Assembly: GCA_964400475.1 (NCBI GenBank)
Contig: CAYNTH010000001.1
Location: forward strand, 819-64,818
Direction: 5' to 3'
Length of the DNA: 64,000 nt
From: an uncultured archaeon
GTDB taxonomy: Archaea; Aenigmatarchaeota; Aenigmatarchaeia; CG10238-14; SCSR01
A program made the translations under genes and the position numbers. This document shows positions 9,771-52,407 of the stretch, piece after piece. Within the stretch, counting starts at the first letter, position 1. Every line of letters starts with the position of its first letter. The notes beneath the pieces are model-generated. The model was not told the DNA's origin, did not search any database, and saw nothing but the letters and a program-made list of their open reading frames with translations.

Positions 9771-10693
9771 TGAGTGAAAAAATATCTGTTGTGGTTTGTA
9801 CTATAAACAGGGCCAGTTTGACGGATTGCTTGAAATCTATTTATCAACAGGATTATAACGATATAGAAGTTATAGTGATTTCCCCAGACGAACGCGGTGT
9901 AAAAAAGATATTGAATGATTCATTGGATACGAAAAATCTAGAGTCAACTAAATTTGTACAGTCGCCCAAAGCAAATGTTTCTATACAGAGGAATTTGGGC
10001 ATAATGAATTCTTCGTCTGATATAGTTTGTTTTATAGACGATGATGCAGTTGCAGAAAAATCTTGGGTAACCAATCTGATTAAACATTATTCTGATAAGA
10101 AAGTAATGGCAGTTGGAGGTAAAATAAATCCTAAATTTAAGGGGTCCATACCAGACGAACTCAAAGAACTACCTGATAGTATTTTCAAGGGTTTTTTAGG
10201 TGAGACATTGTTTGAAACGGATGAGACAAAGCGGCTGGATATGCCTCTTCTGTGGGGGTCTAATATATCCTTTAGGAAAGAGATTTTTGACAGGATTGGA
10301 TTTTTCAACGAGGAATTGGGTAGGGCTGGAGACAAATTGTTGTGTGAGGAAGAAATAGATATACAATCCAAAATTCTAGATAAGGGTTATGATATAATCT
10401 ATGAACCATCATCTGTTGTTATTCATTATGTGGGTAAAAATAAACTTAATAGGAATTATTTTATTAAACGTGCATTTTGGCAGGGTTATTCTGAAGTAAT
10501 TAAAATTAAAGGATATTCTGATTTTAGGAAAAATATGGGGAATATCAGAATATCACATTTGCGATATGTGAATAACATAAAGTTTTTAGAATTGCTGTTT
10601 GAATTGGAAAGTTCGCCCAACCTTAAGAACAGTGTAGAAAAGTCATATAGGTTGGGCCGTATTGTGGGTTTGTCGTGCCTCGTTAATCGGTGA
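9767..10693 (+). CDS. Family 2 glycosyltransferase (GT-A fold)
   Basis: ISVVVCTINRASLTDCLKSIYQQDYNDIEVIVISPDE plus the DxD region VCFIDDDAVAE. ATG 9767 forms an ATGA overlap with the upstream stop; the track start is GTG 9761. Confidence 0.85.
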   Translation: MMSEKISVVVCTINRASLTDCLKSIYQQDYNDIEVIVISPDERGVKKILNDSLDTKNLESTKFVQSPKANVSIQRNLGIMNSSSDIVCFIDDDAVAEKSWVTNLIKHYSDKKVMAVGGKINPKFKGSIPDELKELPDSIFKGFLGETLFETDETKRLDMPLLWGSNISFRKEIFDRIGFFNEELGRAGDKLLCEEEIDIQSKILDKGYDIIYEPSSVVIHYVGKNKLNRNYFIKRAFWQGYSEVIKIKGYSDFRKNMGNIRISHLRYVNNIKFLELLFELESSPNLKNSVEKSYRLGRIVGLSCLVNR

Positions 10694-11736
10694 TTTTCTT
10701 GGAAGATATGAGAAAAGATAAAATGTTGTTATATCTGCTGTCGTATTATTCAAACATACCACTTGTTAAACCAGATTTCATAAATTTTGGTTTGACCCAC
10801 AGATGTAATTTGGGTTGCAATATTTGTGAAACATGGGAGGAACGACCCAACGTTGAAGATGAACTAATTCTAGATGATTTGAAGAAAACAATTTTTGATA
10901 TTTCAAAATGGGGTAGGATTAATATCTCTTTTGCGGGCGGGGAACCACTTATACGGAAAGATGATTTATTGCAATGCATAAAATATGCCAGTGGGTTGGG
11001 GTTGGATACACATGTTACAACGAATGGGATATTAATAAATGATAAAACAGCTGCTGAATTGGTGAAATCTGGGTTGGATTATTTGCAAGTATCGTTGGAT
11101 GGAATAAACGAAAAGACGAACGACAGTATTCGGAATGATGGATCTTATGCTGGAGCAATTCGTGCAATAGAAAAAATCAAAAAACACATCGAATTGGAGG
11201 AATCTGATATGAAGTTATCCATTACAACTGTAATTACAGATAAGAATATCGATGAATTATTGGGCATATACACGTTCGTCGAGGAAAATGATTTGCATGA
11301 AGTTTCGTTTAATCCGTATATAGCCGATAACTCCTATACAAAAGATAAAAATTATGAAGATGACGATTTCTGGGTGTCAGAAGAAAATATACCAAAATTA
11401 AGACGTGTATCTGATGAGTTGATAAAATTAAAAAAAGACAGGGGTAAAATAGGCACACCTCTTATAACATTGAAGCTGATGGGTGATTATTTTGAGAAGA
11501 AAACTTCATTTGATTCGGGTATATGCTTGGCAGGATATAGTTATATGTATGTTAAACCCAACGGCGAGGTCGATGTCTGCGGTAAAGGTCCATCAATGAA
11601 CGTCAGAGACAGCAATATAAGAAAGATATGGTATAGCCTAAAATTCGCGAAAACAAGATTAAAGATAACGCAGTGTAAAAAACCTTGTTTGATGTTATGT
11701 TTCCCCCGTGTAAGGTTTAAAGATTTTCTAAAATAG
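10690..11736 (+). CDS. Radical SAM enzyme, array paralog 1 (subfamily A tail)
   Basis: GLTHRCNLGCNICE (CX3CX2C), FAGGEPL, TTNGIL, SLDG..TNDSIRNDGSY. Tail: GICLAGYSYMYVKPNGEVDVCGKGP...CKKPCLMLCF. Confidence 0.9.
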   Translation: MIFLEDMRKDKMLLYLLSYYSNIPLVKPDFINFGLTHRCNLGCNICETWEERPNVEDELILDDLKKTIFDISKWGRINISFAGGEPLIRKDDLLQCIKYASGLGLDTHVTTNGILINDKTAAELVKSGLDYLQVSLDGINEKTNDSIRNDGSYAGAIRAIEKIKKHIELEESDMKLSITTVITDKNIDELLGIYTFVEENDLHEVSFNPYIADNSYTKDKNYEDDDFWVSEENIPKLRRVSDELIKLKKDRGKIGTPLITLKLMGDYFEKKTSFDSGICLAGYSYMYVKPNGEVDVCGKGPSMNVRDSNIRKIWYSLKFAKTRLKITQCKKPCLMLCFPRVRFKDFLK

Positions 11737-11759
11737 AATTTATTATCAATTAGATTGTT

Positions 11760-12857
11760 ATGTTAATCGATTATAAGCGGGAATTGGATTTAATTTTGGA
11801 TTATTTGCTTAGTGTGATTTCTTATAGAACAAATATCCCGTTAGTTAAGCCAACCAGAATTAATTTCGATATAACCAACAGATGTCCATTGAGATGTGTT
11901 ATGTGCAATATCTGCAGGCGAGATCACAGAGAAAATGACGAATTGGAGTTGTCTGAGTTGGAAAGTATAATAGACCAGGCAGTTGAATGGGGTATAGATA
12001 ATATCTCTTTTGCAGGCGGCGAAACCCTGGTGAGGAAAAATGATGTTTTGGAATTGATAGATTATTGTAGTTCGAAAAATATGACAACATCTCTGATCAC
12101 GAGCGGTACAATATTCGACAAAAAAACATTTGACAAAATTTTTGAATCTGGTTTGGACAAACTTACAATATCACTCGATGGTGCAACAGAGAAAACCCAC
12201 GATTATATCAGAGGAAAGGGTGCGTTTGAGAAGGCTATGCGAACTGCAAAATATTTCTCAAATAATAGAAACGGCAAGAAAAACCTTGAATTAGAGTTCG
12301 CAACATGTGTCATGTCTTATAATTATATGGAATTGCTAGACATTTATGAACTCATGAAAGAGGTTGGTTTTGATTTTGTAAATTATCAAGCTGTTGTTCC
12401 AGACAACAATTATTCGAATTTTAATAAGTCTGTGTATGATGTAGATTTTTGGTTAGATAGTGGCGAATCAAATAATCTGAGATCGATAGTTAACAAATTG
12501 ATAAAATTAAAGGAGGAAGAAGGTAAAATACGGAATAGCAAATACTATCTTAAAAAGATGCCTGATTACTTTATATTAAAAAACGAATTCAACCCCGGGA
12601 GATGTATGGCAGGATATAGGGTGATTAACATAGACCCGTATGGTAATATCAATATCTGCGGCCTTGGCCCTAATCTGAATGTGAGGGATGCGCCATTGAG
12701 GGAGTTATGGACACATGATGAATTCAAGAAGACCAGGATAAAGATAAAAGACTGCAAGGTTCCATGCATGATGTTGTGTTACGAAAAATTGGTTTTTATG
12801 GACCTATATAACAGTTGGATTGACAAAAGGATAGGTGAAGAATTACATGATGAATGA
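11760..12857 (+). CDS. Radical SAM enzyme, array paralog 2 (subfamily A tail)
   Basis: DITNRCPLRCVMCN, FAGGETL, SLDGATEKTHDYIRGKGAFEKA. Tail: GRCMAGYRVINIDPYGNINICGLGP...DCKVPCMMLCY. Confidence 0.9.
   Translation: MLIDYKRELDLILDYLLSVISYRTNIPLVKPTRINFDITNRCPLRCVMCNICRRDHRENDELELSELESIIDQAVEWGIDNISFAGGETLVRKNDVLELIDYCSSKNMTTSLITSGTIFDKKTFDKIFESGLDKLTISLDGATEKTHDYIRGKGAFEKAMRTAKYFSNNRNGKKNLELEFATCVMSYNYMELLDIYELMKEVGFDFVNYQAVVPDNNYSNFNKSVYDVDFWLDSGESNNLRSIVNKLIKLKEEEGKIRNSKYYLKKMPDYFILKNEFNPGRCMAGYRVINIDPYGNINICGLGPNLNVRDAPLRELWTHDEFKKTRIKIKDCKVPCMMLCYEKLVFMDLYNSWIDKRIGEELHDE
12657..12783. repeat. 127-bp perfect identity tract shared by paralogs 2 and 3 (partner 13750-13876)
   Basis: Base-by-base comparison by eye: tgcggccttggccctaatctgaat...gatgttgtgttacg is identical in both genes and lies in frame in both. 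Confidence 0.9.
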
Positions 12858-13920
12858 TATTCATAAAAAATTTGATTATGTTAAGAGATATCTCGGTTAT
12901 TTGTTATCACATGAATTTAATTATCCATTATCCCATCCTAAGGAATTAAATTTTCAGGTTACCAACAGGTGTCCGTTGAATTGTATAATGTGCAACATAT
13001 CTAAATTGTCCCCATCATCTAACGAGATGACATATGAAGAAATGAGAGATGTTATAGATCAGGTAGTTGATTGGGGAGTGGAATATATTTCTTTCGTTGG
13101 AGGAGAGGCCTTAGTTAGAAAAAATGATACTTTAAGATTGATAAAATATTCAAACGAGAGAGGATTTCATACAACTTTAATATCTTCTGGTTATTTTCTC
13201 GATAGGAAAGTTTGTAAAGAGTTGATAGACAACGGTTTAAACAGGTTAACGATATCACTCGATGGTGCAACAGAGAAAACCCACGATTATATCAGAGGAA
13301 AGGGTGCGTTTGAGAAGGCTATTAGCAGCATGGGGAAACTTGTCGAATTGAGAGGTAAAGTGTCAAATTGTGACTTGGCACTCGATTTTTCCACAGTCAT
13401 TATGTCTCATAATTTTAGGGAGTTAGTGGACATATATAGATTGGCTAAGAACATCGGAGTCGACCGTATATTCTATCAAGCCGTTGTTTTAGATAATACT
13501 TATGAATCTGGTCCGTCTGGATATAATGGATGTGATTTCTGGATAAACGAAGACGATATGAATGAATTTGAAAACGTTGTTGATAAATTAATAAAAATTA
13601 AAGAAAATGATAGCGATTTCTTGTTTAATTCACGCACATATTTGGAATTATTACCGGATTATTTCAGGCTGAAAAACGAATTCAACCCTGGGAGATGTTT
13701 GGCCGGATATATGAATTTGAATATAGACCCCTACGGCAACATCAGTGTGTGCGGCCTTGGCCCTAATCTGAATGTGAGGGATGCGCCATTGAGGGAGTTA
13801 TGGACACATGATGAATTCAAGAAGACCAGGATAAAGATAAAAGACTGCAAGGTTCCATGCATGATGTTGTGTTACGGTAAATTTGAACCCAAAGAGATGA
13901 TTAAGCATTTATTAGATTGA
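12835..13920 (+). CDS. Radical SAM enzyme, array paralog 3 (subfamily A tail)
   Basis: QVTNRCPLNCIMCN, FVGGEAL, SLDGATEKTHDYIRGKGAFEKA. Tail: GRCLAGYMNLNIDPYGNISVCGLGP...DCKVPCMMLCY. Overlaps paralog 2 by 23 nt. Confidence 0.9.
   Translation: MKNYMMNDIHKKFDYVKRYLGYLLSHEFNYPLSHPKELNFQVTNRCPLNCIMCNISKLSPSSNEMTYEEMRDVIDQVVDWGVEYISFVGGEALVRKNDTLRLIKYSNERGFHTTLISSGYFLDRKVCKELIDNGLNRLTISLDGATEKTHDYIRGKGAFEKAISSMGKLVELRGKVSNCDLALDFSTVIMSHNFRELVDIYRLAKNIGVDRIFYQAVVLDNTYESGPSGYNGCDFWINEDDMNEFENVVDKLIKIKENDSDFLFNSRTYLELLPDYFRLKNEFNPGRCLAGYMNLNIDPYGNISVCGLGPNLNVRDAPLRELWTHDEFKKTRIKIKDCKVPCMMLCYGKFEPKEMIKHLLD
13750..13876. repeat. 127-bp perfect identity tract (partner 12657-12783)
   Basis: See the partner entry. 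A second perfect 71-bp tract links 12168-12238 with 13252-13322, and the sequence between the two tracts is strongly diverged. Confidence 0.9.
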
Positions 13921-13924
13921 TAAT

Positions 13925-14959
13925 ATGATTGATGATAGATTCGACAAAGTTTGCAAAGCAATCAACAGTGGGTGTAAAGTTGGCCCTGAGAAAGTTATGA
14001 TATCCCCTACCGATTATTGTAATTTAAATTGTGGTATTTGCTGGAGAAATGAAAAAGAAGAAAAATATGATGAACTCACCCTGGATGAAATAAAATCAAT
14101 ATTGGAAGAATGTAAAGAGATGGGTGTTAGGATCATAGATTTTACTGGAGGAGGGGAACCGTTTATCAGGCATGATATATTCGATATAATGAAAATGATT
14201 AAAGATTTTGGTTTTTTCGGTACACTTACAACTAATGGAACATTATTGGATAAGGATAAGATTATGAAAATTGTCGATATTGGCCTGGATGATATATGTT
14301 TTTCACTGGACGGGCATACCGCTGCGATAAATGATTCTATACGGGGCAATGGTGTTTATTCAGATGTTATAAAATCGATTAGATTATTGAAATCCATGAA
14401 GAATGATTGTAGTTCGGATTTGCCTGTAATTAGAATAGGTACTGTCATCACCTCTAAAAATTTCAAACACCTAGACGATATTGTAGAATTGGCCCATGAG
14501 TTAGACATAAATGCCATAAATTTTTCTGTTTTGATTGAATGGGAGTCGAATAGGAGTTTTTGGATGAGGGATATCGATGAAGACCATATACATAAAGAAC
14601 TTGCCATGGCCAAGAGAAAATGCGACAAATACAGTATAAATTCTAATATAGAAAGTATTCTGGAGTTTGGGGTTTTTGAACACAAGACGCCTGATTTTTG
14701 TTTTGCCCCATGGGAAATGGTCTTTATTAATGCTAGTGGAGATGTTATGGCATGTTGTACACTTGCCAGTCTTTATGAAAATATTATTGGCAACATCAAA
14801 GAAAGTTCTCTTAGGGATATTTGGTACGGGGAAAGGATGGAAAAATTTAGAAAAATGATTATAGATCACAACTTACCAAAAAATTGTAAAAAATGCATAC
14901 CCGATTTTACAAAACAATACAATAAAAAATATAATAAAATGGTATCGATCAATGGATGA
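13925..14959 (+). CDS. Radical SAM enzyme with SPASM/Twitch-type tail, array paralog 4
   Basis: SPTDYCNLNCGICW, FTGGGEPF, TTNGTL, SLDGHTAAINDSIRG. Tail: FCFAPWEMVFINASGDVMACC...NCKKC. Confidence 0.9.
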   Translation: MIDDRFDKVCKAINSGCKVGPEKVMISPTDYCNLNCGICWRNEKEEKYDELTLDEIKSILEECKEMGVRIIDFTGGGEPFIRHDIFDIMKMIKDFGFFGTLTTNGTLLDKDKIMKIVDIGLDDICFSLDGHTAAINDSIRGNGVYSDVIKSIRLLKSMKNDCSSDLPVIRIGTVITSKNFKHLDDIVELAHELDINAINFSVLIEWESNRSFWMRDIDEDHIHKELAMAKRKCDKYSINSNIESILEFGVFEHKTPDFCFAPWEMVFINASGDVMACCTLASLYENIIGNIKESSLRDIWYGERMEKFRKMIIDHNLPKNCKKCIPDFTKQYNKKYNKMVSING

Positions 14960-16049
14960 AAAAATCAAAAGGTTGTTGAAATGGGCGAATGGTGGTAAAG
15001 CGGGGCCTGTTAGGATAGAATTGCATCCCACAGATAAGTGCAATCTCAATTGTAGGTTCTGTTGGCAGAGTACTGTCGAAAATCCGGATTACAGTAAAGA
15101 ATTGAGCGAGGACAAAATACTTTCGATTATCGATGAAGCAGCTTTGATGGATGTAAGGGAATGGATAATTTCTGGCGGAGGGGAACCGTTTATGCGACGT
15201 GACACTACTATGAAAATTTTGAAAAAGATAAAGAAATATGGGATGTGGGGCCAATTGACCACGAACGGAACCCTTATTCAGGATTCTGATATAGAGATTC
15301 TCGTGAGAATTGGATGGGATCAGATACAATTTAGCATAGATGGACCCAATGCAGATATACATAATTATCTCAGACGGGGGGACGATGCTTTTGAAAAGGC
15401 CATCAATAATGTTGAAAAATTTTCTGCTATGAAGAAAAAATTGGGACTGACTAAGCCTTATATAGGATTTAATATGGTTTTGAACGCAATGAACTATGAT
15501 AAGATACCTGATATGATACGTTTGGCAGATAGTGCAGGGAGCCAATTAGTGTATATAGAACCCATTTATCCAGGGTATTTGAGCAATGAGAGACTGAGTT
15601 TAAATGATGATGAAAAAAAGGAACTTAAATATCATATAAAAGATACCATAAAAATCTCTAAGGAACTCGGAGTCAGTACGAATGCGGATCACTTTTTCCA
15701 GAAGTATCTAATAGATAAGGACAAATTCGATAAAACTATCCTTAATGAAGTATCTGGAACGAATAACACCATGTCGAACGCACCTTGTTATCAGCCATGG
15801 TATTTAATGGGGATAAAAGGATCTGGATTCGCTGGATGTTGCTCTACATTTGAGGAGGGAGAATTCATCCATGAAAAAAGTCTATCAGATGTTTGGTACG
15901 GAGATATTTTCGACAAAGTTAGGGACAGAATGATAGAAAAAAATATACCAGATTATTGTTCTAAATGTAGTGTCGTAGTGATGATGGACAATAAAAAGAT
16001 TCGTGAGAAATTTAAAAAACGAATAAGCAATGCTAATTCAAATAATTGA
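14952..16049 (+). CDS. Radical SAM enzyme with SPASM/Twitch-type tail, array paralog 5
   Basis: HPTDKCNLNCRFCW, ISGGGEPF, TTNGTL, SIDGPNADIHNYLR. Tail: PCYQPWYLMGIKGSGFAGCC...YCSKC. 8-nt overlap with paralog 4. Confidence 0.9.
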   Translation: MDEKIKRLLKWANGGKAGPVRIELHPTDKCNLNCRFCWQSTVENPDYSKELSEDKILSIIDEAALMDVREWIISGGGEPFMRRDTTMKILKKIKKYGMWGQLTTNGTLIQDSDIEILVRIGWDQIQFSIDGPNADIHNYLRRGDDAFEKAINNVEKFSAMKKKLGLTKPYIGFNMVLNAMNYDKIPDMIRLADSAGSQLVYIEPIYPGYLSNERLSLNDDEKKELKYHIKDTIKISKELGVSTNADHFFQKYLIDKDKFDKTILNEVSGTNNTMSNAPCYQPWYLMGIKGSGFAGCCSTFEEGEFIHEKSLSDVWYGDIFDKVRDRMIEKNIPDYCSKCSVVVMMDNKKIREKFKKRISNANSNN

Positions 16050-17215
16050 ATTTATATTTGTTCAATATGGATCTCGATACCATCCGATTAGAACGAAATA
16101 AGAGATTGTTGAAGTGGGAATCCGGTAAGACAGCCCCGCCACTGAGATTGATAGTTTTTCCTACCGCTAAATGTAATCTTCAATGCAGGATGTGTAAAAG
16201 AACACACAATTATCCAAATTCTTATACCGAAAATCTGGAATTAGGTGAAATGCCAATTGATAGATGGATAAAAATAACAAAAGAAGCCATAGAGATGGGT
16301 GTCAAAGATTGGTGGATACCTGGCTCGGGTGAACCTATGATGAGGTCAGATGCGGTGGTCAAAGTAGTGGAAGAGGTTAAATATCATTCAGATGATTCCA
16401 ATATAATGTTAACTACCAATGGCACACTTTTCACACCCCTGATAATAAGGAAATTTGTCAAACTAGGGGTTGATAGAATACAATTCAGCTTGGATTCAGC
16501 TGATCCTAAAATACATGATAGTATTAGAGGTGTTAAAGGTAGTTTCTATAGAACAATAAAAAATATCAGGCTTTTTAACTATTATAAAAAAATTTTTGAT
16601 ACTGACAAGCCCGACATGTATGTCAATTCTGTTATTACAAGAAAAAACTATACGAGTCTAGATAAATTAGCTGAGAAGTCTAAATTTTTAGGATGCAGTA
16701 GGATAAATTTGAATGAAATGATAGTCTATGACAAAGCAACCCCCAAAATAAAGGATTTAGTAATTTTAGATAAATCGAAAATAAAAGGCGAAATTGAAAA
16801 TTTGAAATCGTTTGGAAGCGCTGATAATTTTGATGTTTCAATAAGGATCGATACCGGGCCAGAAAAAAAAGAAATAACAAATGATAGATGTATTGGGAAA
16901 AGGAACAAAAATCAGATTATTGAGCGTAAATTCCTATCCCTCCCCTGTTTTGAGCCGTGGTACAGTATAAGTATAGACCCATACGGTTTCATTTCTCCGT
17001 GTTGCAATTGGGGAAAAGGTAAAGAAGAGTTTTCTATAGTGGGTAAGTCTCTATCAGAAGTATGGTATGGGGAATATATGGAATATTTCAGAGATATGAT
17101 CAGTGAGGGAAGATTAGAAGGACCTTGTAGAGGATGTAATATGAAATTTGTGTCAGATGAGATATCGAAAGAACTTAAGGATTATCAGACTTCAAATAAA
17201 AAAATAAGTATGTAG
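16046..17215 (+). CDS. Radical SAM enzyme with SPASM/Twitch-type tail, array paralog 6
   Basis: FPTAKCNLQCRMCK, IPGSGEPM, TTNGTL, SLDSADPKIHDSIRG. Tail: PCFEPWYSISIDPYGFISPCC...PCRGC. The start may be ATG 16067. Confidence 0.9.
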   Translation: MNLYLFNMDLDTIRLERNKRLLKWESGKTAPPLRLIVFPTAKCNLQCRMCKRTHNYPNSYTENLELGEMPIDRWIKITKEAIEMGVKDWWIPGSGEPMMRSDAVVKVVEEVKYHSDDSNIMLTTNGTLFTPLIIRKFVKLGVDRIQFSLDSADPKIHDSIRGVKGSFYRTIKNIRLFNYYKKIFDTDKPDMYVNSVITRKNYTSLDKLAEKSKFLGCSRINLNEMIVYDKATPKIKDLVILDKSKIKGEIENLKSFGSADNFDVSIRIDTGPEKKEITNDRCIGKRNKNQIIERKFLSLPCFEPWYSISIDPYGFISPCCNWGKGKEEFSIVGKSLSEVWYGEYMEYFRDMISEGRLEGPCRGCNMKFVSDEISKELKDYQTSNKKISM

Positions 17216-23462: not shown

Positions 23463-23484
23463 ATTTTAGGAGTTGATAAATAAT

Positions 23485-31181: not shown

Positions 31182-31249
31182 TATTTTGATTATATTAAGG
31201 AATATCGTAGAGAACCTTGTTAGTATTTTTTGATAATGGTGTTTGTATA

Positions 31250-32338: not shown

Positions 32339-32342
32339 TTAG

Positions 32343-46624: not shown

Positions 46625-46636
46625 TTTTTTCATATT

Positions 46637-46798
46637 TTATACTAGCGGATATACAAAAATAGGGACAGGAGAAACACTACCAACTATGATTAGGATTCCT
46701 ATTATAAAGAGCACACATATTAATGGCAGTAACCACCATTTCTTATTTTTGAACAGATATCTCAAAAAATCTTTAATGTAATAAAATTTATTTGCCAT
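46637..46798 (-). CDS. Small (53 aa) single-pass membrane protein, DUF5989-like; not in the ORF track
   Basis: Manual translation gives MANKFYYIKDFLRYLFKNKKWWLLPLICVLFIIGILIIVGSVSPVPIFVYPLV. This matches the remembered pattern of the small DUF5989 proteins found in polysaccharide clusters (..KKWWLLPii..LLl.G.l.......s...PFIYtLF). It lies directly downstream of the SGNH gene and is co-directional with it. Confidence 0.6.
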   Translation of the reverse strand: MANKFYYIKDFLRYLFKNKKWWLLPLICVLFIIGILIIVGSVSPVPIFVYPLV

Positions 46799-46858
46799 AA
46801 TAACAACCAATATTTTTTTTCAAATTTAATTGTTTAGATATTTTTGATTAATTGCTGT

Positions 46859-47872
46859 TTATACTGTAATTTTTCTGTATATTCTTTCCGCCATTAGTCT
46901 GTGTGTAAATTCATTCGGATGATTGTCTTTTTCATGTACGCTAGTCTTTTCCCACCCATATTTATGGATTATTTCATCTGCATGTATTACTTCCCATCCA
47001 AAATTATCTGAAATCCTTTCCAGATATACGTTAAATTTACCTATAGGATGTGCAATTAAAATTATCACATCTATCTCCATATCATCGGTGGTATTATTGA
47101 GTTCTAATAAAGGATTCTCGACATTTTGCCAGACTTCTTCGGGATTACTCTCCATTTTCTTATTAAGCTCTTTTTGATATTTTTCGTATGCCGCATCATA
47201 TAATCGATTTCTGTCTCTATCCGGTATTTCCGATTGATTACTTATAGAATTTTTTTCGATGTATTCTTTGGCTAGTCCTCTATATACTTCATATAATTCT
47301 GTTCGATTATGATAATCATCTTCGGTATATTGGAATATTACCATATCTGGATTAAATTCCATTCCTTTTCCTTTCAGGATTTCAACTTTTTCGATGGCAT
47401 TATGCCCTGGGACACCGAAATTTAAGACTTCATATTTCCGATTATCTTCTGTTTTATTATTTAGCATACGTTCTAATGTTTTCACATATGTATCTTCTAA
47501 TTCAACTCCGTGTCCCCATGTGATGGAATCCCCCAATGCAATTATCCTGAAAGTATTGGTTGGTTTTTCTATGGAATATTCGTAATCTCTAAGTCCATGA
47601 GAATTTATCGATATATTCGTTGCAGGTATTTTGACGGTTAGTCCATCAAAAATAGTTTCACAATTTGGAATCAATATGTTGACAGGAATTGAACTATAAT
47701 TAGTTCGTGTGCAATGAAATTTAAATCGCGGCATTTCCGATTCTTTTTCTACATGTCCAAGAATAATGAATTTACCAGTAATCCCATCATTTAGTAACCA
47801 GAAAGATATGAGTGCTGTTACTATTAAGATTGTTGTTGCGTATATTGTATAATATCTACTTTCTTTTCTCAT
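46859..47872 (-). CDS. SGNH/GDSL-family hydrolase (esterase or acyl-modifying) with an N-terminal membrane anchor
   Basis: Block I is FRIIALGDSITWGHGV. Block V is EKDNHPNEFTH (DxxH). N-terminal TM segment YYTIYATTILIVTALISFWLL. Confidence 0.8.
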   Translation of the reverse strand: MRKESRYYTIYATTILIVTALISFWLLNDGITGKFIILGHVEKESEMPRFKFHCTRTNYSSIPVNILIPNCETIFDGLTVKIPATNISINSHGLRDYEYSIEKPTNTFRIIALGDSITWGHGVELEDTYVKTLERMLNNKTEDNRKYEVLNFGVPGHNAIEKVEILKGKGMEFNPDMVIFQYTEDDYHNRTELYEVYRGLAKEYIEKNSISNQSEIPDRDRNRLYDAAYEKYQKELNKKMESNPEEVWQNVENPLLELNNTTDDMEIDVIILIAHPIGKFNVYLERISDNFGWEVIHADEIIHKYGWEKTSVHEKDNHPNEFTHRLMAERIYRKITV

Positions 47873-47986: not shown

Positions 47987-49108
47987 ATGATTGATATGGA
48001 AGAAAAGGTAAAACGACTTCTTAATTGGTCCAAAGGCCGTGCCCAGGGTCCAATAAGTGTTCACATAGATCCAACCAATAGATGCAATTTGAAATGTAGA
48101 TTCTGTTGGCAACGCTCGCATGAAAGATTTGGTTGGTTGAATACTGAAAATGAACTATCCAGAGAGAAATTAGTTTCAATTGTGGATGAAGCAGCTGAAC
48201 TTGGAGTGAAAGATTGGCTAATATCCGGCGGTGGTGAGCCCATGATGAGAGTGGACGATACTGTGGATATGATGGTAAATATTAAAAAACATGGGATGTG
48301 GGGAGATATAATAACAAATGGTACAATACCAAATGATTCACATCTGAGTAAAATAGTTAATTCCGGCTGGGATGTTTATAGGGTTAGCATAAACGCTCCC
48401 AATGAAAATGTTCACGATTATCTGGTCAATACTCCTGGAGCTTTTAGAAAAGCAGTTTCTAGAATTAAAAAAATAAACAAATTAAAAGAGAAGTTTGGAA
48501 TTGACAAGCCTGATATTGGGTTTAATACAGTCATAAATAGAGAGAATTATTCGCTTATGCCGGGTATAATAGAATTTCTGCACGAGTTGGGCGGTTCCTT
48601 CATAAATGTTCAAACAATTATACTTTATTCTGATGAAGAAGCTAGATGGTCACTGGACGAAAAACATAGAAGAGATTCTCAGAAATATCTGAAGGAAGCT
48701 ATTGAGATTTCCCATGACCTAAATATACGGACAAATTTAGAAAATTATCTAGACGATCAGTTAATGAGAGAATCAACTGAGATGGATAAGATGAAAAAAT
48801 TAGGTTTATCCGATTTGGAAAATATAGAACATTCTAATGCATTTTTTAAGTCGTTTTGTTTTGAACCATTCTATCTTATGACAATAAGATCTGATGGTAC
48901 CGTGGGATCTTGTAGATTGTTTGGTGATCAGGGGGATAATATAATCGATAAATCCTTGAAAGATGTATGGTTTGGTGATTATTTTGAGAAGGCCAGAAAA
49001 GCACAAATCAATGGTAATATTCCAAAATTTTGTTCAAAATGTGGTTCAAACGAATTTTTGGAAAATAGAAGAATAAGACGGGAATTGATTAAATATTCAG
49101 ATGATTAG
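47987..49108 (+). CDS. Radical SAM enzyme with SPASM/Twitch-type tail, array paralog 24
   Basis: DPTNRCNLKCRFCW, ISGGGEPM, ITNGTI, SINAPNENVHDYLV. Tail: FCFEPFYLMTIRSDGTVGSC...FCSKC. Confidence 0.9.
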   Translation: MIDMEEKVKRLLNWSKGRAQGPISVHIDPTNRCNLKCRFCWQRSHERFGWLNTENELSREKLVSIVDEAAELGVKDWLISGGGEPMMRVDDTVDMMVNIKKHGMWGDIITNGTIPNDSHLSKIVNSGWDVYRVSINAPNENVHDYLVNTPGAFRKAVSRIKKINKLKEKFGIDKPDIGFNTVINRENYSLMPGIIEFLHELGGSFINVQTIILYSDEEARWSLDEKHRRDSQKYLKEAIEISHDLNIRTNLENYLDDQLMRESTEMDKMKKLGLSDLENIEHSNAFFKSFCFEPFYLMTIRSDGTVGSCRLFGDQGDNIIDKSLKDVWFGDYFEKARKAQINGNIPKFCSKCGSNEFLENRRIRRELIKYSDD

Positions 49109-50215
49109 ATGGAAAAAATTGTCGAATCATTTATAAGTTGGATCAATGGAAACGTAAAAGGTCCATTAAAATTGCAGTTAAATCCAACCAATAGATGCAA
49201 TTTGAAATGCAGATTCTGTTGGTTACGGGATTATGATTCTAAACCTACCAATTATGATGAGGTAGACAGAGACCGGTATCTAGAAATAATTGAAGAAGCA
49301 AATGATTTAGGTGTCAACAAAATTGAAATAACCGGTGGCGGCGAACCGTTTTGTAGGTCTGATATACTCGATATCATGGAAAGAATAAAATCCTATAATA
49401 TTTTTGGGGAATTGATTACAAATGGAACTTTGTTTAACAATGATTCTATAAAAAAAATAATTGATATTGGTTGGGATAGAATCGTTTTTAGTTTGGATGC
49501 ACCTGATGCTGAGACGCATGATTATCTGAGAGGGGTTAGTGGATCATTTGAAAAAACAGCTTATTCTATAAAAGAATTCATAAAACACACTGACGATATG
49601 AAAAAAAGTCTACCTGAATTATGTGTTCATATGGTATTATGTAATGAAAACCATGATAAAATTTCAACTATGTTCGAATTCGTGAACAGTCTTGGTATAG
49701 ATAATCTATTTATAGAACCTATCGTGCTTCTAGCACCTGAAACAAATTCTGGTAATGATCTTATGATTGACTCTGAGCATAAGAAGAAATTATTATTGGA
49801 AATTGAAGATGCGATAGAAATTGCGACAAAATATGGATTTAAAACGAATATAGACAAATTAAGGCTGCAATTTATTGAGAACGTAAATAAAATGGATAAA
49901 TTCATAATTAGTGAATCGGTTCGATATGATAAGAATTCATTATTATCGATACCATGTTATTATCCGTGGTATCAGATGATAATAAGGCCTTGGGGGTCAG
50001 TTGGTCCATGTTGTATGTTCGATAATATTGGTGAGAACATAAAGGAGAAAAGTTTACATGACATATGGTATGGCGATTATTTTGAAAAAATGAGAGATAT
50101 ATTGAAAAAAAATAAACTTCCTAAATTTTGTTCAAAATGCAATCCTAGTCAAGTCCAGGAGAATAATAAAATACGTGAGTTTTTGAAAAGATATGAAAGA
50201 CGAAAAAATCAATAG
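49109..50215 (+). CDS. Radical SAM enzyme with SPASM/Twitch-type tail, array paralog 25
   Basis: NPTNRCNLKCRFCW, ITGGGEPF, ITNGTL, SLDAPDAETHDYLRGVSGSFEK. Tail: PCYYPWYQMIIRPWGSVGPCC...FCSKC. Confidence 0.9.
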   Translation: MEKIVESFISWINGNVKGPLKLQLNPTNRCNLKCRFCWLRDYDSKPTNYDEVDRDRYLEIIEEANDLGVNKIEITGGGEPFCRSDILDIMERIKSYNIFGELITNGTLFNNDSIKKIIDIGWDRIVFSLDAPDAETHDYLRGVSGSFEKTAYSIKEFIKHTDDMKKSLPELCVHMVLCNENHDKISTMFEFVNSLGIDNLFIEPIVLLAPETNSGNDLMIDSEHKKKLLLEIEDAIEIATKYGFKTNIDKLRLQFIENVNKMDKFIISESVRYDKNSLLSIPCYYPWYQMIIRPWGSVGPCCMFDNIGENIKEKSLHDIWYGDYFEKMRDILKKNKLPKFCSKCNPSQVQENNKIREFLKRYERRKNQ

Positions 50216-51269
50216 GCTGCTCAAATGGGCAGACGGTCAGACAGCACCACCATTCACTCTAGACATTAGTCCAACAGATAAATGTAATCTAAGGTGTTTG
50301 TCGTGTTGGCAACGAAGATTCGATACTATTGATTCTAATTATGAGTTATCTGATGCTAAGTTACTCGAAGTTGTCAATGAAGGTATTGGTATGGGGGTTG
50401 AAGAATTTGAAATAACCGGTGGCGGCGAACCCTTGATGCGGAGAAAGATTGTCATCGAAATGATGGAGTTAATCAAATCTAATGATAAGTTTGGAAATAT
50501 CACAACAAATGGAACTTTGTTTAGACGTCAAGATATTGAGAAAATCGTCGATATTAATTGGGATCAAATAACTTTTAGTTTGGACGGTCCTGATTCAAAA
50601 ACAAATAATTATTTGAGAGGAGATGAGTCTTTTGAAAAAGTAATGTCAGCAATTTCTACTTTTAATGAGCTCAAAGCACCGAAATCATCTTATCCTAAAT
50701 TAAAATTTAATTGCGTTCTTAGTAATGTCAATTATGATAAGATTGGTGAAATCATAGAATTGGCGAGTGCAAATAATGTTGGTATTGTTAGTTTTGAACC
50801 TCTCACTGTCCATTCATCGATAGGTGAAAAGTTAAAACTGGGTAGAGATGAAATTGAGAAGCTTAAGTCTACTATAATCAATTCGATTGAATTGGCGAAA
50901 AAATATAATATTATCACAAATTTAGACGGATTGAGGAATGAATCTTTCATTGAAAAATCTAATCAGATGGATGACGTTATTTTAGAAAATAACAAAGAAA
51001 AAATTAGAAGATTTCATTCAATCCTGTGCTACGAACCGTGGTGGCATATAGTTGTTAAAGTCGATGGATCAGTACAACCATGTTGTTTGTATGATTTAAA
51101 GGACGAAAATGTCAGAAATAATTCTCTAGAATACATATGGTTTGGCGAGACTTTTCAAAAAATCAGAAAAAATATTTTAGATAGAAACCTATCGGAATAT
51201 TGCTCTATATGTAATGCAGGTCAGGTTATGGAAAATATAAAGATTAGTAATTTGTTGAGTGGTGTATAA
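50193..51269 (+). CDS. Radical SAM enzyme with SPASM/Twitch-type tail, array paralog 26
   Basis: SPTDKCNLRCLSCW, ITGGGEPL, TTNGTL, SLDGPDSKTNNYLRG. Tail: LCYEPWWHIVVKVDGSVQPCC...YCSIC. 23-nt overlap with paralog 25. Confidence 0.9.
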   Translation: MKDEKINRLLKWADGQTAPPFTLDISPTDKCNLRCLSCWQRRFDTIDSNYELSDAKLLEVVNEGIGMGVEEFEITGGGEPLMRRKIVIEMMELIKSNDKFGNITTNGTLFRRQDIEKIVDINWDQITFSLDGPDSKTNNYLRGDESFEKVMSAISTFNELKAPKSSYPKLKFNCVLSNVNYDKIGEIIELASANNVGIVSFEPLTVHSSIGEKLKLGRDEIEKLKSTIINSIELAKKYNIITNLDGLRNESFIEKSNQMDDVILENNKEKIRRFHSILCYEPWWHIVVKVDGSVQPCCLYDLKDENVRNNSLEYIWFGETFQKIRKNILDRNLSEYCSICNAGQVMENIKISNLLSGV

Positions 51270-51303
51270 AATAAAGATATTTTATTCATAGTTTGTGTAA
51301 ATT

Positions 51304-52407
51304 GTGTTAGATATGAAAGACGAAAAAATCAATAGGCTGCTCAAATGGGCAGACGGTCAGACAGCACCACCATGGAGCATAGAGCTTAGTCCAACTTTGA
51401 AGTGCAATTTAAATTGTTTGTTTTGTTGGAGACATGGAAAGAATAATATCGATTTTGGAAATGAAATTAGTCTGGAGAAATATAAAAAAATAATAAAGGA
51501 AGCATCTGATATTGATGTTAGAGAGATTAAGATAATAGGTGGCGGCGAGCCATTTTTTAGGAATGATACAATTGAAATAATGAAAAATGTTAAGTTATAC
51601 GATATGATGGGATATATTTGTACGAACGGTACACGTTTCACATCTGATATGATTAATGAATTAACCGACATTGGTTGGGATCATATAAAAATAAGTTTAC
51701 ACGGTGCAAGAGAATCAACTCATGATAAATTAACTCAAGTGGATGGTTCATTCGAAAAATGTATAAAATCGATTGAGAAATTCAGAGAAGTTAAAAAAAT
51801 GTTAAAATCGAATAATCCTCACATCGAAATCGGATTTGTTCTAGTTAAGGATAATTATCATGAAATATCTGAAATGATTGATATTTCGGCTGAGTTGGGT
51901 GTGAATTCTTTTTTTGTTGAACCAATTACAGTATATAGCGAAATAGGTAAAAGAATGAAACCAAATCAATCCGATTACGAGACTTTTAGGGATATTGCAA
52001 AAAATGCCAATTTAAAAGCGAATGAATTTGGAATAGAAACAAACCTTTCTAATTTCGTCGAATCTAGATTCATGGAGAAGACAGGAGAAATGATAGATTT
52101 GATTAAAGAAGATTCTGGTGATAGTCTAGACTTCTATTCGATTCCATGTTATGAACCATGGTATAGAATGGGTATACGAGTTGACGGATCGGTTTGTCCA
52201 TGTGGGTTTTTCGATCAGGGGACAACAGATAACATAAAGGAGAAAAGTTTACATGACATATGGTATGGCGATTATTTTGAAAAAAGAAGGTACCAGTTAC
52301 TAAATAACGATTTACCACATCATTGTAAGAAGTGTTGTGTTACTCTTGTTGTAAATAATCAGAGATTAAGGAATGAATTAAAGAAGATGAGTCGAACTGA
52401 ACATTAA
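51304..52407 (+). CDS. Radical SAM enzyme with SPASM/Twitch-type tail, array paralog 27
   Basis: SPTLKCNLNCLFCW, IIGGGEPF, CTNGTR, SLHGARESTHDKLT. Tail: PCYEPWYRMGIRVDGSVCPC...HCKKCC. The start is GTG 51304 or ATG 51313. Confidence 0.9.
   Translation: MLDMKDEKINRLLKWADGQTAPPWSIELSPTLKCNLNCLFCWRHGKNNIDFGNEISLEKYKKIIKEASDIDVREIKIIGGGEPFFRNDTIEIMKNVKLYDMMGYICTNGTRFTSDMINELTDIGWDHIKISLHGARESTHDKLTQVDGSFEKCIKSIEKFREVKKMLKSNNPHIEIGFVLVKDNYHEISEMIDISAELGVNSFFVEPITVYSEIGKRMKPNQSDYETFRDIAKNANLKANEFGIETNLSNFVESRFMEKTGEMIDLIKEDSGDSLDFYSIPCYEPWYRMGIRVDGSVCPCGFFDQGTTDNIKEKSLHDIWYGDYFEKRRYQLLNNDLPHHCKKCCVTLVVNNQRLRNELKKMSRTEH

Follow-up and report, generated by a model that had tools for sequence, protein, structure and literature searches.

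The window analysed here, a 64,000-nucleotide stretch of DNA from an uncultured archaeon of the Candidatus Aenigmatarchaeota, carries between positions 10690 and 52407 a run of 27 intact radical SAM (rSAM) ORFs of 344-467 aa, a count made in the initial annotation and upheld by ORF calls, Pfam and motif checks. The genes fill 30,249 of the 41,718 nt in this span (73%), in strand blocks of 12 (+), 2 (-), 1 (+), 8 (-) and 4 (+) copies, with same-strand neighbours mostly overlapping by 1-23 nt or standing 0-8 nt apart. Profile searches recovered Pfam Radical_SAM and SPASM in all 27, as expected from the initial assignment, and each has an N-terminal CxxxCxxC (predominantly as C-N-L-x-C-x-x-C, and directly followed by W in 11), a GGE-type motif (the few variants being GSGEP, GGWEP, GANEP, GISEP and CLGEP), TNG with SxDG..ETHD..RG, and C-terminal Cys. 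The original ‘SPASM-Twitch’ label needs narrowing, however: the SPASM profile matches stand, but the C-terminal domain conserves just four Cys (CX17C...CxxC) instead of the seven-Cys motif of SPASM, which makes the enzymes Twitch-like, with a single auxiliary cluster. No copy is truncated or has lost a cluster Cys, and Pfam found no transposase or integrase domain in ORFs of at least 150 aa across the span, both in agreement with what was first noted. With two B12-binding rSAMs and four Tes-like rSAM genes (58599-64000; NCBIfam-based), the window holds 33 rSAM genes in total.

Leading into the array is an operon of an ABC-2 type permease (Wzm/TagG-like; 5961..6770, +; Pfam ABC2_membrane 4.3e-08), a TagH/Wzt-like ABC ATPase (6773..8170, +), a 537-aa protein (8157..9770, +) that overlaps both neighbours, a GT2 glycosyltransferase (9761..10693, +; Pfam Glycos_transf_2 2.3e-17) and rSAM paralog 1, with stop/start overlaps of 4-14 nt (4 nt between GT2 and paralog 1); the surface-glycan context originally proposed is well founded in this respect. 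The ATPase matches TagH (7.1e-65) and Wzt/RfbE (2.4e-54) in NCBIfam, and TagH (2e-63), TarH and Aquifex Wzt (1.6e-56) in the PDB, and has a C-terminal extension of ~210 aa that is conserved in relatives. The 537-aa protein has no match in Pfam, NCBIfam or PDB; in related loci L008/L009 its slot is taken by a coiled-coil protein with the C-terminal tag described below. Divergent from the operon lies a PMT_2 (GT-C family) membrane glycosyltransferase (4560..5915, -; Pfam PMT_2 2.3e-06), and PMT/PMT_2 genes also occur in L023 and L025. Beyond the array come a 168-aa membrane-anchored, Cys-containing protein (52404..52910, -; no Pfam match, a 35%-identity homolog in L024), the GT4 glycosyltransferases GT4a (52962..54158, +; Pfam Glyco_trans_1_4 6e-20, Glyco_transf_4) and GT4b (54206..55342, +; Pfam; L010 ortholog, 46% identity), and a 688-aa polytopic membrane protein, an LA_3751/LA_3752-like putative glycosyltransferase (56379..58445, -; NCBIfam NF047440 2.3e-15, below cutoff) with homologs at the edges of L014 and L016. 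The array is hence flanked, by exporter and GT2 on one side (5961-10693) and by both GT4 genes on the other (52962-55342), rather than interleaved with them as first described; the SGNH gene is indeed interleaved.

Set among the Twitch-type genes are the two B12-binding rSAMs, two DUF2079 proteins, two AKR+4Fe-4S reductases, a GDSL/SGNH protein, a 118-aa coiled-coil ORF and a DUF5989 mini-ORF. ‘B12a’ (536 aa; 17215..18825, +; Pfam Radical_SAM 2.5e-12) has NCBIfam matches, all below cutoff, to B12 rSAM C-/P-methyltransferase families, and three tandem homologs in L023; ‘B12b’ (470 aa; 43598..45010, +; Pfam B12-binding 2.2e-14, Radical_SAM 8e-22) is HpnJ/BchE-like (NCBIfam HpnJ 1.9e-57, 195 bits where the cutoff is 578; BchE 3e-55), and domains homologous to it occur in P0242 and P0350 as fusions with Twitch rSAM domains. 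Both DUF2079 proteins are polytopic in the membrane (27295..28881, -, Pfam DUF2079 3.3e-29; 45068..46624, +, 2.4e-28), the first with a putative GT-C-like function. They are joined by the 57-aa DUF5989 membrane ORF (46637..46810, -; Pfam DUF5989 8.9e-13) and the GDSL/SGNH hydrolase-like protein (46859..47872, -; Pfam Lipase_GDSL 8.8e-06; homologs in L023 and L024). The reductases each combine an Aldo/keto reductase with a 4Fe-4S dicluster: AKRa (31217..32338, +; Pfam Aldo_ket_red 4.9e-29, Fer4_17) has orthologs adjoining arrays in L001, L006 and L007, and AKRb (540 aa; 32343..33965, +; Aldo_ket_red 4.1e-31, Fer4 families) has orthologs at 41-62% identity in L001, L006, L007 and L024. The coiled-coil ORF (23473..23829, +) is conserved, occupying the same place in the arrays of L001, L002 and L013-L016 (49-60% identity); its C-terminal tag, h-x-S-I-S-Y-R-[LV]-G-R..AET.IGG..KK.L.KY, recurs on paralog 19 and other proteins of these loci.

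The paralogs were identified by Pfam Radical_SAM and SPASM plus a motif check, and orthology was called from reciprocal best hits (RBH) and an NJ tree within locus views of +/-10 kb each; the counts are accordingly minima, and an ortholog listed as absent may in some cases lie beyond the view. In the first plus-strand block, paralog 1 (348 aa; 10690..11736), whose last Cys pair is a CxxxC variant, has an orthogroup in nine other loci (48-63% identity); paralogs 2 (365 aa; 11760..12857) and 3 (361 aa; 12835..13920) belong to orthogroups common to nine loci and paralog 4 (344 aa; 13925..14959) to one common to ten. Paralog 5 (365 aa; 14952..16049) has an RBH group in 16 other loci that also includes paralog 24, and L021 and L022 contribute further orthologs, from bacteria; for paralog 6 (389 aa; 16046..17215) neither RBH nor tree found an ortholog among the loci viewed. 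Orthogroups are common to 12 loci, bacterial L004 among them, for paralog 7 (359 aa; 18822..19901), to ten each for 8 (392 aa; 19910..21088) and 9 (383 aa; 21081..22232), to six for 10 (396 aa; 22272..23462), to four plus L024 for 11 (390 aa; 23844..25016), to six plus L024 for 12 (379 aa; 25025..26164) and, on the minus strand, to four plus L024 for 13 (378 aa; 26153..27289). No ortholog was found among the loci viewed for paralogs 14 (369 aa; 28945..30054, -), 16 (364 aa; 34359..35453, -), 17 (354 aa; 35457..36521, -) and 22 (355 aa; 41292..42359, -), the last being a mosaic with paralogs 18 and 23; paralog 15 (349 aa; 30132..31181, +) has weak counterparts only (33-39% identity; L023 and L024).

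The remaining minus-strand copies comprise paralog 18 (368 aa; 36567..37673; orthologs L023_10001, 52%, and L024_9977, 49%); paralog 19 (467 aa; 37657..39060), which bears a C-terminal coiled coil and SxSF[RK]LG tag and has orthologs L023_8577 (65% identity over 100% of length, tag also present) and L024_11091 (53%); paralog 20 (390 aa; 39061..40233; ortholog L023_7455, 53%, collinear with 19 and 18); paralog 21 (358 aa; 40235..41311; five loci); and paralog 23 (367 aa; 42364..43467; three loci, plus L024 at 51%). The final plus-strand block holds paralogs 24 (373 aa; 47987..49108; L001_18568, 64%, L009 and L024_104, 56%), 25 (368 aa; 49109..50215; L001_19679, 57%, and L009), 26 (358 aa; 50193..51269; L001_15474, 50%, and L009) and 27 (367 aa; 51304..52407; L001, L009 and L010), which ends the array and adjoins GT4a.

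The initial annotation implied that the array was unique, which is not the case: numerous independent MAGs of Candidatus Aenigmatarchaeota (DPANN) contain syntenic arrays. Six separate loci (L001, L009, L013-L016) each pack 13-14 family members into no more than 21 kb, and GCA_030018415.1 has at least 22 (across L025, L023 and L001). The island is a lineage-wide feature of this group. The order ABC2-ABC-GT2-rSAM-array is repeated in L002, L009, L013, L014 and L016; ABC-2 permease orthologs lie upstream of arrays in ten loci, and GT2 (26-45% identity) upstream of rSAMs in 12, directly so before rSAM #1 in ten of these (40-45%). L010 departs from this order, with its exporter genes on the opposite strand and no detected GT2 ortholog; GT4a orthologs come after the arrays in L009 and L010. 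Conserved partners are the TagH/Wzt-type ABC exporter, GT2, GT4, AKR-ferredoxin reductases and B12 rSAMs, and related islands also encode DegT, GFO/IDH/MocA, carbamoyltransferase, polysaccharide deacetylase, PMT and methyltransferase. None of the papers searched describes such an rSAM array, and we know of no pathway that uses this many rSAM enzymes; a tiny-genome archaeon devotes one island to 27 different rSAMs around an apparent surface-sugar export system, and related archaea retain it.

Gene neighbourhoods and fusions elsewhere link the family to sugar chemistry. One bacterial operon (L021) runs GT4 (41% identity to GT4a), rSAM (48% to paralog 5) and rSAM (40% to paralog 7) with a 4-nt overlap, and another (L022) ThiF, DegT aminotransferase and rSAM. 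In both L009 and L010 the orthologs of paralog 27 and GT4a overlap by 4 nt; P0343 fuses an array-family rSAM to a GT4 homologous to GT4a (E 4e-23), and P0324 another to a phosphodiesterase domain. Public proteins with two to four fused array-family domains, some plus a B12b-like domain, support co-function of the paralogs. Modelled with AF2 (pLDDT 91), paralog 5 has an rSAM core and Twitch hairpin, its N-terminus being one short helix. BtrN, DesII, BlsE, NeoN and AprD4 are rSAM enzymes acting on sugars; BlsE and DesII are among the structural neighbours of the array enzymes, and BtrN is a neighbour by sequence.

Our best reading, to which we would give roughly even chances, is that this is an Aenigmatarchaeota ABC-transporter-dependent surface-glycopolymer locus, whose Twitch rSAMs tailor a lipid-linked surface glycan, their putative substrate, by radical chemistry. 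The following account of substrate class, individual chemistries, AKR and tag roles and final acceptor is our inference. The exporter would be of Wzm/Wzt or TagGH type, and the tailoring section would have expanded to ~20-30 differentiated rSAMs, each with one auxiliary cluster. GT2 and GT4 would make the glycan on the cytoplasmic membrane face, lipid-linked or from nucleotide-activated precursors; each Twitch rSAM would then cleave SAM reductively, and the 5'-deoxyadenosyl radical take one specific sugar C-H, with, by analogy to the five sugar enzymes named above, ketone oxidation, epimerisation, deoxygenation/dehydration, decarboxylation or C-C bond formation as possible outcomes. The two AKR-ferredoxin proteins may reduce keto intermediates or supply electrons, and the B12 rSAMs may methylate or rearrange rings, with tagged coiled-coil/TPR proteins keeping the enzymes at the membrane. 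Finally, the ABC transporter would export the finished polymer, to be attached or decorated outside the cell by GT-C-type enzymes (PMT_2, DUF2079, LA_3751-like) and the SGNH enzyme.

Several observations speak against a glycan. For a glycan built of repeat units, three cytoplasmic GTs against 27 rSAMs is an unusual proportion; Pfam found no polyprenyl-phosphate initiating transferase within the window; searches did not show a Wzt-type carbohydrate-binding module in the C-terminal extension of the ATPase; and the four Tes-like, lipid-type rSAMs lie close to the array. None of the 27 reaches an NCBIfam equivalog cutoff, and we know of no characterised member of the family. By sequence and fold searches the family is, moreover, equally near the peptide maturases SkfB, SuiB, PqqE and CteB and the sugar enzymes, and similarity therefore cannot tell the possible substrates apart. 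The TPR fusions of array-family rSAMs seen among public proteins would be compatible with protein substrates too.

The variable or combinatorial repertoire raised in the initial annotation is not supported. Other Aenigmatarchaeota loci contain 1:1 orthologs of at least 21 of the 27 copies (43-65% identity, mostly collinear), and 17 of these copies fall in single-copy clades of the NJ tree. The paralogs are therefore differentiated enzymes of long standing, each conserved in its own right; a fast-turning cassette set is rejected on these grounds, and the conservation points to an old multi-step pathway. That the copies are maintained, as was supposed, is supported by strong purifying selection: between ortholog pairs dS is saturated and dN far lower, with dN/dS of 0.02-0.27 where calculable.

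Inflation of the array during assembly is ruled out because the copies share only 18-54% protein identity (median 31%), with orthologous arrays in at least ten independent assemblies. Short gene-conversion patches, along with the ~6 copies for which the viewed stretches showed no ortholog, do hint at some local dynamism: paralogs 2 and 3 (54% protein identity) share a 230-nt patch at 89% nucleotide identity, 9 and 11 one of 201 nt at 91%, and 18 and 22 one of 177 nt at 96.6%, and a 66-nt patch in paralog 17 is 97% identical to both 18 and 22.

Twenty-seven uninterrupted radical SAM (rSAM) genes lie between positions 10690 and 52407 of the window, as the initial annotation had read from the bare sequence; ORF listing and a motif scan recover them all, coding for proteins of 344-467 aa and numbered here 1 to 27 along the window. 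They account for 30,249 of the 41,718 nt of the span, close to the 30 kb first estimated, and, with start codons set mechanically at the first ATG, GTG or TTG, same-strand neighbours mostly overlap by 1-23 nt or stand 0-8 nt apart. No silent or truncated cassettes were detected, in line with the earlier view that no copy is pseudogenised, and no transposase or integrase was found among the other ORFs scanned in the span, again as claimed. In all, the window holds 33 rSAM genes, the 27 of the array and six others; Rfam and tRNA scans of the window returned no matches.

In the profile search that had been recommended, all 27 proteins match the Pfam families Radical_SAM (PF04055, best E 1.8e-27) and SPASM. 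Each carries one N-terminal CxxxCxxC, the motif for the SAM-binding [4Fe-4S] cluster, and a SAM-binding motif GGGEP or a variant of it, whose Glu is invariant. The proteins can be aligned over their full length, at pairwise identities of 18-54% (median 31%), and among the residues identical in all copies are the three Cys of the cluster motif, the Glu of GGE, the Gly of TNG, the Ser of SxDG and three C-terminal Cys. CX17C (with GX4C) is present at constant spacing in every copy and is followed by CxxC, or by CxxxC in paralogs 1-3. Of the ‘SPASM-Twitch’ label first given to the family, it is the Twitch half that stands; NCBIfam N_Twi_rSAM matches all 27 (best E 2.3e-29), four Cys are conserved at fixed spacing throughout, and an AlphaFold2 (AF2) model of paralog 5 places a hairpin at residues 285-295. 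The full seven-Cys SPASM motif, CX9-15GX4C...CX2CX5CX3C...C, does not occur, no CX2CX5CX3C being found in any of the 27, and the Pfam SPASM match spans only the half shared with Twitch. With four auxiliary Cys instead of seven, the family is Twitch-like by sequence, with a single predicted auxiliary cluster.

The top PDB profile matches of the family are SkfB (1.5e-29), PqqE (2.8e-28) and SuiB (8.7e-26), together with MoaA, BlsE, BtrN and CteB. Structure prediction and a fold search, which had also been advised, gave a model of paralog 5 (pLDDT 91) that matches SkfB, SuiB, BlsE, DesII, CteB, viperin, PqqE and anSME at TM ~0.55-0.64, anSME being merely mid-ranking. Likeness in sequence and fold does not discriminate between substrate classes, and gene context is more informative. 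Paralog 1, the copy for which NCBIfam bit scores were set against cutoffs (the remaining 26 were judged by best E-values), falls below the cutoff of every family listed, with 88.9 against 381 bits for PqqE and 81.8 against 265 for mycofactocin. The best NCBIfam model over the 27 is TIGR04317 (best E 5.6e-47), the ‘tungsten cofactor oxidoreductase radical SAM maturase’, which likewise describes a small archaeal rSAM/SPASM protein; the scores lie far under its 380-bit cutoff, however (84 bits for paralog 1), and the window has no aldehyde:ferredoxin oxidoreductase gene. A defence role as viperin was rejected, since the PADLOC pVip match is partial and covers the core only (residues 31-191 of paralog 1 against model positions 2-154 of 257); against NCBIfam viperin_w_prok, paralog 1 reaches 89 bits where the cutoff is 180.

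Upstream of the array, genes for an ABC-2 permease, an ABC ATPase (6773-8170), a 537-aa protein and a GT2 overlap one another, and the GT2 stop overlaps the start of rSAM gene 1; a PMT_2 (GT-C) gene diverges from this operon. The ATPase is TagH/Wzt-like (NCBIfam TagH, 7.1e-65; PDB matches to TagH at 2e-63, TarH, Aquifex Wzt at 1.6e-56 and mycobacterial RfbE), and permease and nucleotide-binding protein together make up a Wzm/Wzt (TagGH) exporter, predicted to be of the type that exports lipid-linked glycopolymers. An ABC-2 permease with an extended TagH/Wzt-like ATPase, in an operon with glycosyltransferases, is likewise seen in the O-antigen Wzm/Wzt, wall teichoic acid TagGH and mycobacterial galactan Wzm/Wzt systems. 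The island departs from ABC-dependent glycopolymer pathways in that no polyprenyl-phosphate initiating transferase of the WecA/WbaP type is present among the window ORFs scanned, although one may lie elsewhere in the genome, and we know of no such pathway with more than an occasional rSAM. The C-terminal 216 aa of the ATPase (window 7520-8167) are beta-rich, contain ‘SLPL..GEY.V.I’ and are conserved in Aenigmatarchaeota orthologs; this extension (~210 aa) has no Pfam or PDB sequence match, its single-sequence AF2 model is unusable (pLDDT 32), and it may be a Wzt-like carbohydrate-binding module. PDB and Pfam searches with the 537-aa protein gave nothing usable.

The same architecture was found in other Aenigmatarchaeota metagenome-assembled genomes (MAGs), as the initial annotation had asked to be checked; related loci read ABC2-ABC-(variable protein)-GT2 and then continue as a run of family members. 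These loci (L001-L025) come from exact protein look-up and a scan of GTDB representative genomes and were viewed over +/-10 kb, so that copy numbers are lower bounds and the lack of an ortholog refers to those views. Scored with an HMM built from our alignment, L001, L009 and L013-L016 hold 13-14 family members per 21 kb or less, and L002, L008 and L010 hold 8-10, with only 1-5 in L004, L006, L007, L011, L012 and L017-L020, some of which are bacterial. One contig of GCA_030018415.1, tiled by three look-ups, carries at least 22 Twitch rSAMs and several B12-type rSAMs along with DegT, GFO/IDH/MocA, PMT, carbamoyltransferase, two phosphodiesterase-family genes, GT4s and a methyltransferase, and a locus in a different genome (L024) has an equal rSAM density. 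Paralog 5 has ~100 orthologs at 45-71% identity, of which the named ones are nearly all from Candidatus Aenigmatarchaeota MAGs and one is labelled as a bacterium. More widely, a profile search of 1.84 billion representative proteins gave 10,807 clusters at E<=1e-30; no relatives were present on the viral contigs scanned, and a viral or mobile-element origin was rejected for this reason.

Interspersed among the 27 genes are two B12-type rSAMs (17215-18825 and 43598-45010, both +), the second HpnJ/BchE-like, along with two DUF2079 polytopic membrane proteins, a GDSL/SGNH gene, a DUF5989 mini-ORF, a 118-aa coiled-coil ORF and two tandem aldo/keto reductases (31217-33965, +), each fused to a domain of the 4Fe-4S dicluster type and the second with ~200 extra C-terminal residues. 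After the array come two GT4 genes (52962-54158 and 54206-55342, both +), a GH113-like gene and a gene for a 688-aa membrane protein similar to the LA_3751/2 putative glycosyltransferases. Orthologs of the aldo/keto reductases (39-62% identity) adjoin rSAM arrays in at least four other genomes, and both B12 rSAMs and aldo/keto reductase-ferredoxin pairs recur next to arrays in related loci; the reductases may act on keto-sugars or as electron donors.

The family is tied to sugar enzymes by its overlap with GT2, by adjacency and fusion to GT4 and by adjacency to DegT. In a bacterial mini-operon of the order GT4-rSAM-rSAM (L021), the products are 41%, 48% and 40% identical to the first window GT4 (GT4a, 52962-54158), paralog 5 and paralog 7; a second operon (L022) reads ThiF-DegT-rSAM, and the orthologs of paralog 27 and GT4a overlap in L009 and L010. 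The public protein P0343 joins a family rSAM, which has the N-terminal LLKW..G..P motif of the family, to a GT4 homologous to GT4a (E 4e-23). Further fusion partners of the family are a phosphodiesterase domain, TPR repeats, other family domains and a B12-type rSAM; P0242 (1927 aa), P0350, P0243, P0244 and P0238-P0241 place two to four family Twitch domains in one polypeptide, with an extra N-terminal B12-binding rSAM like that of window 43598-45010 in P0242 and P0350. At L004 (7474-9765, -), a bacterial 764-aa protein combines a GT4 with a degenerate rSAM-like domain, a ‘pseudo-rSAM’ that has lost CxxxCxxC and kept CX17C...CxxC, next to a GT2 and three rSAM/SPASM genes, two of which (orthologs of paralogs 5 and 7) score as family members. 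This fusion was dropped as evidence, its rSAM-like half being without CxxxCxxC and without a family-HMM match; P0343 is the genuine case.

Of the characterised enzymes, BtrN and the other Twitch carbohydrate rSAMs (DesII, BlsE, NeoN and AprD4), which serve aminoglycoside and nucleoside-sugar pathways, share with the array an rSAM core followed by a four-Cys C-terminal domain (CX~18C...CX2C) for a single auxiliary cluster, predicted in the array, and the BtrN/DesII/BlsE group are among its neighbours in sequence or structure, although without equivalog-level similarity. The toolkit at related loci (GT4, DegT aminotransferase, GFO/IDH/MocA dehydrogenase, B12 rSAM, TobZ/NodU-type carbamoyltransferase and deacetylase) is one that we take to be the same as that around the Twitch rSAMs of aminoglycoside pathways. 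BtrN-type pathways use one to four rSAMs, however, against 27 of one family here, and the island has a polymer-type TagH/Wzt exporter and GT-C enzymes, which point to a cell-surface polymer and not to a diffusible pseudo-oligosaccharide.

Bringing these observations together, we propose, with confidence that is about evenly balanced, that the island encodes an ABC-transporter-dependent surface-glycopolymer pathway in which many site-specific Twitch rSAMs carry out cytoplasmic tailoring. The layout of the island, its conservation and the links to GT, DegT and phosphodiesterase are observed; we infer that the substrate of the rSAMs would be a sugar and their chemistry directed at its C-H bonds. 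The aldo/keto reductases with Fe/S domains and the B12 rSAMs would serve as partners of the Twitch enzymes, and extracellular completion of the product would fall to the GT-C and SGNH enzymes.

We think it unlikely that the 27 enzymes are instead protein or peptide maturases, each making a specific thioether or C-C cross-link or an epimerisation in a ribosomally made peptide or in a large surface protein that is secreted, such as the 118-aa ORF or a Cys-rich protein encoded at 3-3380 (-). The closest solved relatives by sequence and fold (SkfB, PqqE, SuiB and CteB) are enzymes of this kind, several family members carry TPR fusions, a small ORF is conserved within the array in many genomes, and the Cys-rich, Ser/Thr-rich secreted protein lies 7 kb upstream. 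Compared with the RiPP and cofactor SPASM maturases (those four and anSME), which the array resembles in its Pfam SPASM match, the family nevertheless has four auxiliary Cys and not seven, and no PqqD/RRE domain matches in Pfam in any of the 27; the N-terminal extension of 25-40 aa forms one short helix (residues 2-12) ahead of the core in the paralog 5 model, so there is no RRE. No clear precursor peptide, pqqA-like gene or sulfatase was found in the window (no Sulfatase domain among the ORFs scanned), its copy number is about ten times that of RiPP and cofactor maturase loci, and the arrays were not seen to share a Cys-rich or repeated small ORF or any other typical precursor. Also against maturation are the exporter, which is of the TagH/Wzt type and not a peptidase-containing peptide exporter, and the fusions and mini-operons that link the family to GT4 and DegT.

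No Pfam family matches the Cys-rich protein (>1126 aa, running off the window start), which has an N-terminal anchor, 79 Cys (7%) and many Ser, Asp, Gly and Thr residues; as a candidate surface protein it might be glycosylated or cross-linked, and it was dropped as a conserved array partner because no counterpart was found near the arrays at any other locus fetched. The 118-aa ORF (23473-23829, +) occupies the same array position in many genomes and has no Cys at all; its C-terminal tag, SISYR[LV]GR..AET.IGG..KK.L.KY, is found at the end of rSAM paralog 19 and of its ortholog as well, and likewise at the end of the post-ABC protein of L008 and L009 and of one TPR protein of L002. The tag thus looks more like a targeting or scaffolding signal than like a core peptide, and its distribution would suit a common module for membrane targeting or scaffolding; coiled-coil proteins whose C-terminus is basic and amphipathic may resemble the WbdD/WbbB-type scaffolds of ABC-dependent glycopolymer pathways. 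A database search with the ORF returned only itself. As a recurring module, a coiled coil with the tag SxS[YF][RK][LIV]G...G..[IL]KK, which no Pfam family covers, is present in the window at 23473-23829 (+) and at the C-terminus of 37657-39060 (-), and in relatives at L001 20770-20973, L002 15580-15789 and 18359-19246, L008 26-823, L009 4100-4939 and L023 8577-9983.

Somewhat more doubtful still is a role in remodelling isoprenoid lipids, whether host-derived archaeol or GDGT or a dolichol carrier, with each rSAM functionalising a particular unactivated C-H of the chain, through cyclisation, cross-linking, hydroxylation or methylation, as Tes, Gms and GrsAB do. DPANN archaea rely on the lipids of their hosts, archaeal lipid-tail chemistry as known so far is rSAM chemistry, and the B12-type rSAM at 43598-45010 is most like HpnJ, a hopanoid side-chain enzyme. 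Directly 3' of the island, moreover, stand four tandem Tes/GDGT-MAS-like rSAM genes (58599-59861, 59924-61309, 61345-62712 and 62703 to the window end, all +, the last running off it), three of the four with a Zn_ribbon_HMPTM domain. Their NF045702 scores of 115, 222 and 222 bits fall far short of the 450-bit cutoff, which makes them relatives of tetraether lipid synthase rather than its orthologs, and none of the other loci viewed showed them next to an array. As a group, they form a second, separate rSAM expansion in the window. The array family itself shares with Tes/GDGT-MAS, Gms and GrsAB an association with anaerobic archaea, but lacks the Zn ribbon and the cap found in Tes. Gms, a SPASM enzyme of more than 420 aa, has a six-helix N-terminal domain and two auxiliary clusters (PMC11186832); a Gms-like identity was rejected on architecture, the array family having one N-terminal helix, four auxiliary Cys and ~360 aa, and neither the N-terminal domain nor the second cluster. 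The conserved partners of the arrays are an exporter and glycosyltransferases and not lipid-synthesis genes, and the links to GT4 and DegT are hard to account for by lipid-tail chemistry alone.

A different reading, which the initial annotation had raised as a variable repertoire, is that gene conversion, inversion and gain or loss reshuffle the paralogs and so alter a surface structure, for instance in virus evasion or host switching. The alignment and phylogeny that it had called for speak against this. By reciprocal best hits, 18 window copies fall into 17 groups (paralogs 5 and 24 forming one) that are common to 2-16 other loci at 42-68% identity, the best in-window paralog of these copies being just 35-47% identical (54% for the pair 2/3), and three further copies (starting at 39061, 37657 and 36567) have collinear orthologs in L023 at 53, 65 and 52%. 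In a neighbour-joining tree, 17 window copies sit in clades with exactly one member per genome. Gene order is largely kept, running through copies 1-5, 7-10, the coiled-coil ORF and 11-12, and then an inverted block. Among the orthologs in L013, L014 and L016, dS is saturated, dN is 0.12-0.46 and dN/dS is 0.02-0.27 where calculable. The duplications are therefore older than the divergence of the lineages and all copies are under purifying selection, which argues for paralogs with differentiated, non-redundant functions, probably in one pathway.

The observations that do suit a shuffled repertoire are the alternating strand blocks, the variation in copy number among loci, the six copies without a clear ortholog in the limited views (starts 16046, 28945, 30132, 34359, 35457 and 41292), and a set of near-identical short patches between paralogs that are otherwise 30-45% identical. 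Such patches measure 58-300 nt at 82-98% identity, with third-codon-position identity of 0.8-0.86 inside against ~0.4 outside. One of 177 nt (37176-37352 against 41874-42050) is 96.6% identical between genes whose proteins are 45% identical; others pair 36602-36742 with 42402-42542, 21274-21573 with 24058-24357, 12561-12790 with 13654-13883, and 50033-50090 with 52228-52285. In a 201-nt patch (91% identical), third positions agree at 0.85, compared with 0.41 across the remainder of the gene, and a patch of 66 nt (97%) is common to three genes. This mosaic bears the signature of occasional gene conversion within the array. With at least 21 of the 27 copies in conserved order as one-to-one orthologs, dN/dS nowhere above 0.27 where calculable, no silent or truncated cassettes, recombinase or invertible-promoter repeats found, and all copies in tightly packed operons, we regard a diversity-generating repertoire as very improbable. 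That the array is an assembly or binning artefact inflating fewer genes, as a MAG contig might allow, can be practically dismissed, since an assembler cannot have created copies that are only 18-54% identical in protein, the window lies inside a 164-kb contig, and collinear orthologous arrays occur in at least ten independent assemblies from different projects.

We return, then, to a surface glycopolymer tailored by Twitch rSAMs, for which no described system of the same architecture came to light; the literature searched on radical SAM/SPASM enzymes in Aenigmarchaeota and DPANN and on rSAM and glycans or polysaccharides contained no such array, only work on lipids (Tes, Gms), RiPP surveys and unrelated papers. 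Radical SAM pathways normally involve one to four such enzymes, and characterised rSAM-rich clusters (aminoglycoside, polytheonamide, bottromycin and ladderane) have about three to five. The parts of the island are known superfamilies; its radical SAM load is unprecedented for a glycan or biosynthetic island.

We also speculate, more tentatively, that the product of the island is an archaeal envelope polymer or glycoconjugate of a class unknown to date, its units remodelled in a series of over 20 radical reactions, each at a specific site, to yield sugars that are, for instance, deoxy, keto, epimerised, carbocyclic or C-C/C-O cross-linked. If so, the pathway would far exceed every known radical SAM pathway in length, and its product would be a lineage-defining surface structure where small-genome DPANN archaea meet their hosts. 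Aenigmatarchaeota genomes are only ~1 Mb, so the island would occupy a few percent of coding capacity, an investment which implies that the product is central to Aenigmatarchaeota biology; most plausibly it is the cell surface that mediates host contact. For archaeal cell biology, the island predicts an envelope component of an undescribed kind, and for enzymologists it offers dozens of related enzymes, probably differing in regio- or stereospecificity, with the bacterial GT4-rSAM-rSAM operon of three genes and the naturally occurring rSAM-GT4 fusion as a tractable entry.

Some smaller features complete the picture. The DUF5989 membrane ORF (57 aa, 46637-46810, -) lies next to the GDSL gene, and in L024 its counterpart adjoins a carbamoyltransferase and a GDSL gene, a neighbourhood that suggests a conserved small-protein, acyl/carbamoyl-transfer module. 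Two small winged-helix/HTH proteins (3382-3612, -, and 4075-4563, +), encoded between the gene for the Cys-rich protein and the PMT_2/ABC operon, may be local regulators of the island. In the GCA_030018415.1 island, L025 contains at 4102-4786 and 6318-8103 a MazE/PIN toxin-antitoxin pair and PAPS-reductase-family and TauE sulfite-exporter-family genes, the latter two of which hint at sulfur or sulfation chemistry in that relative.
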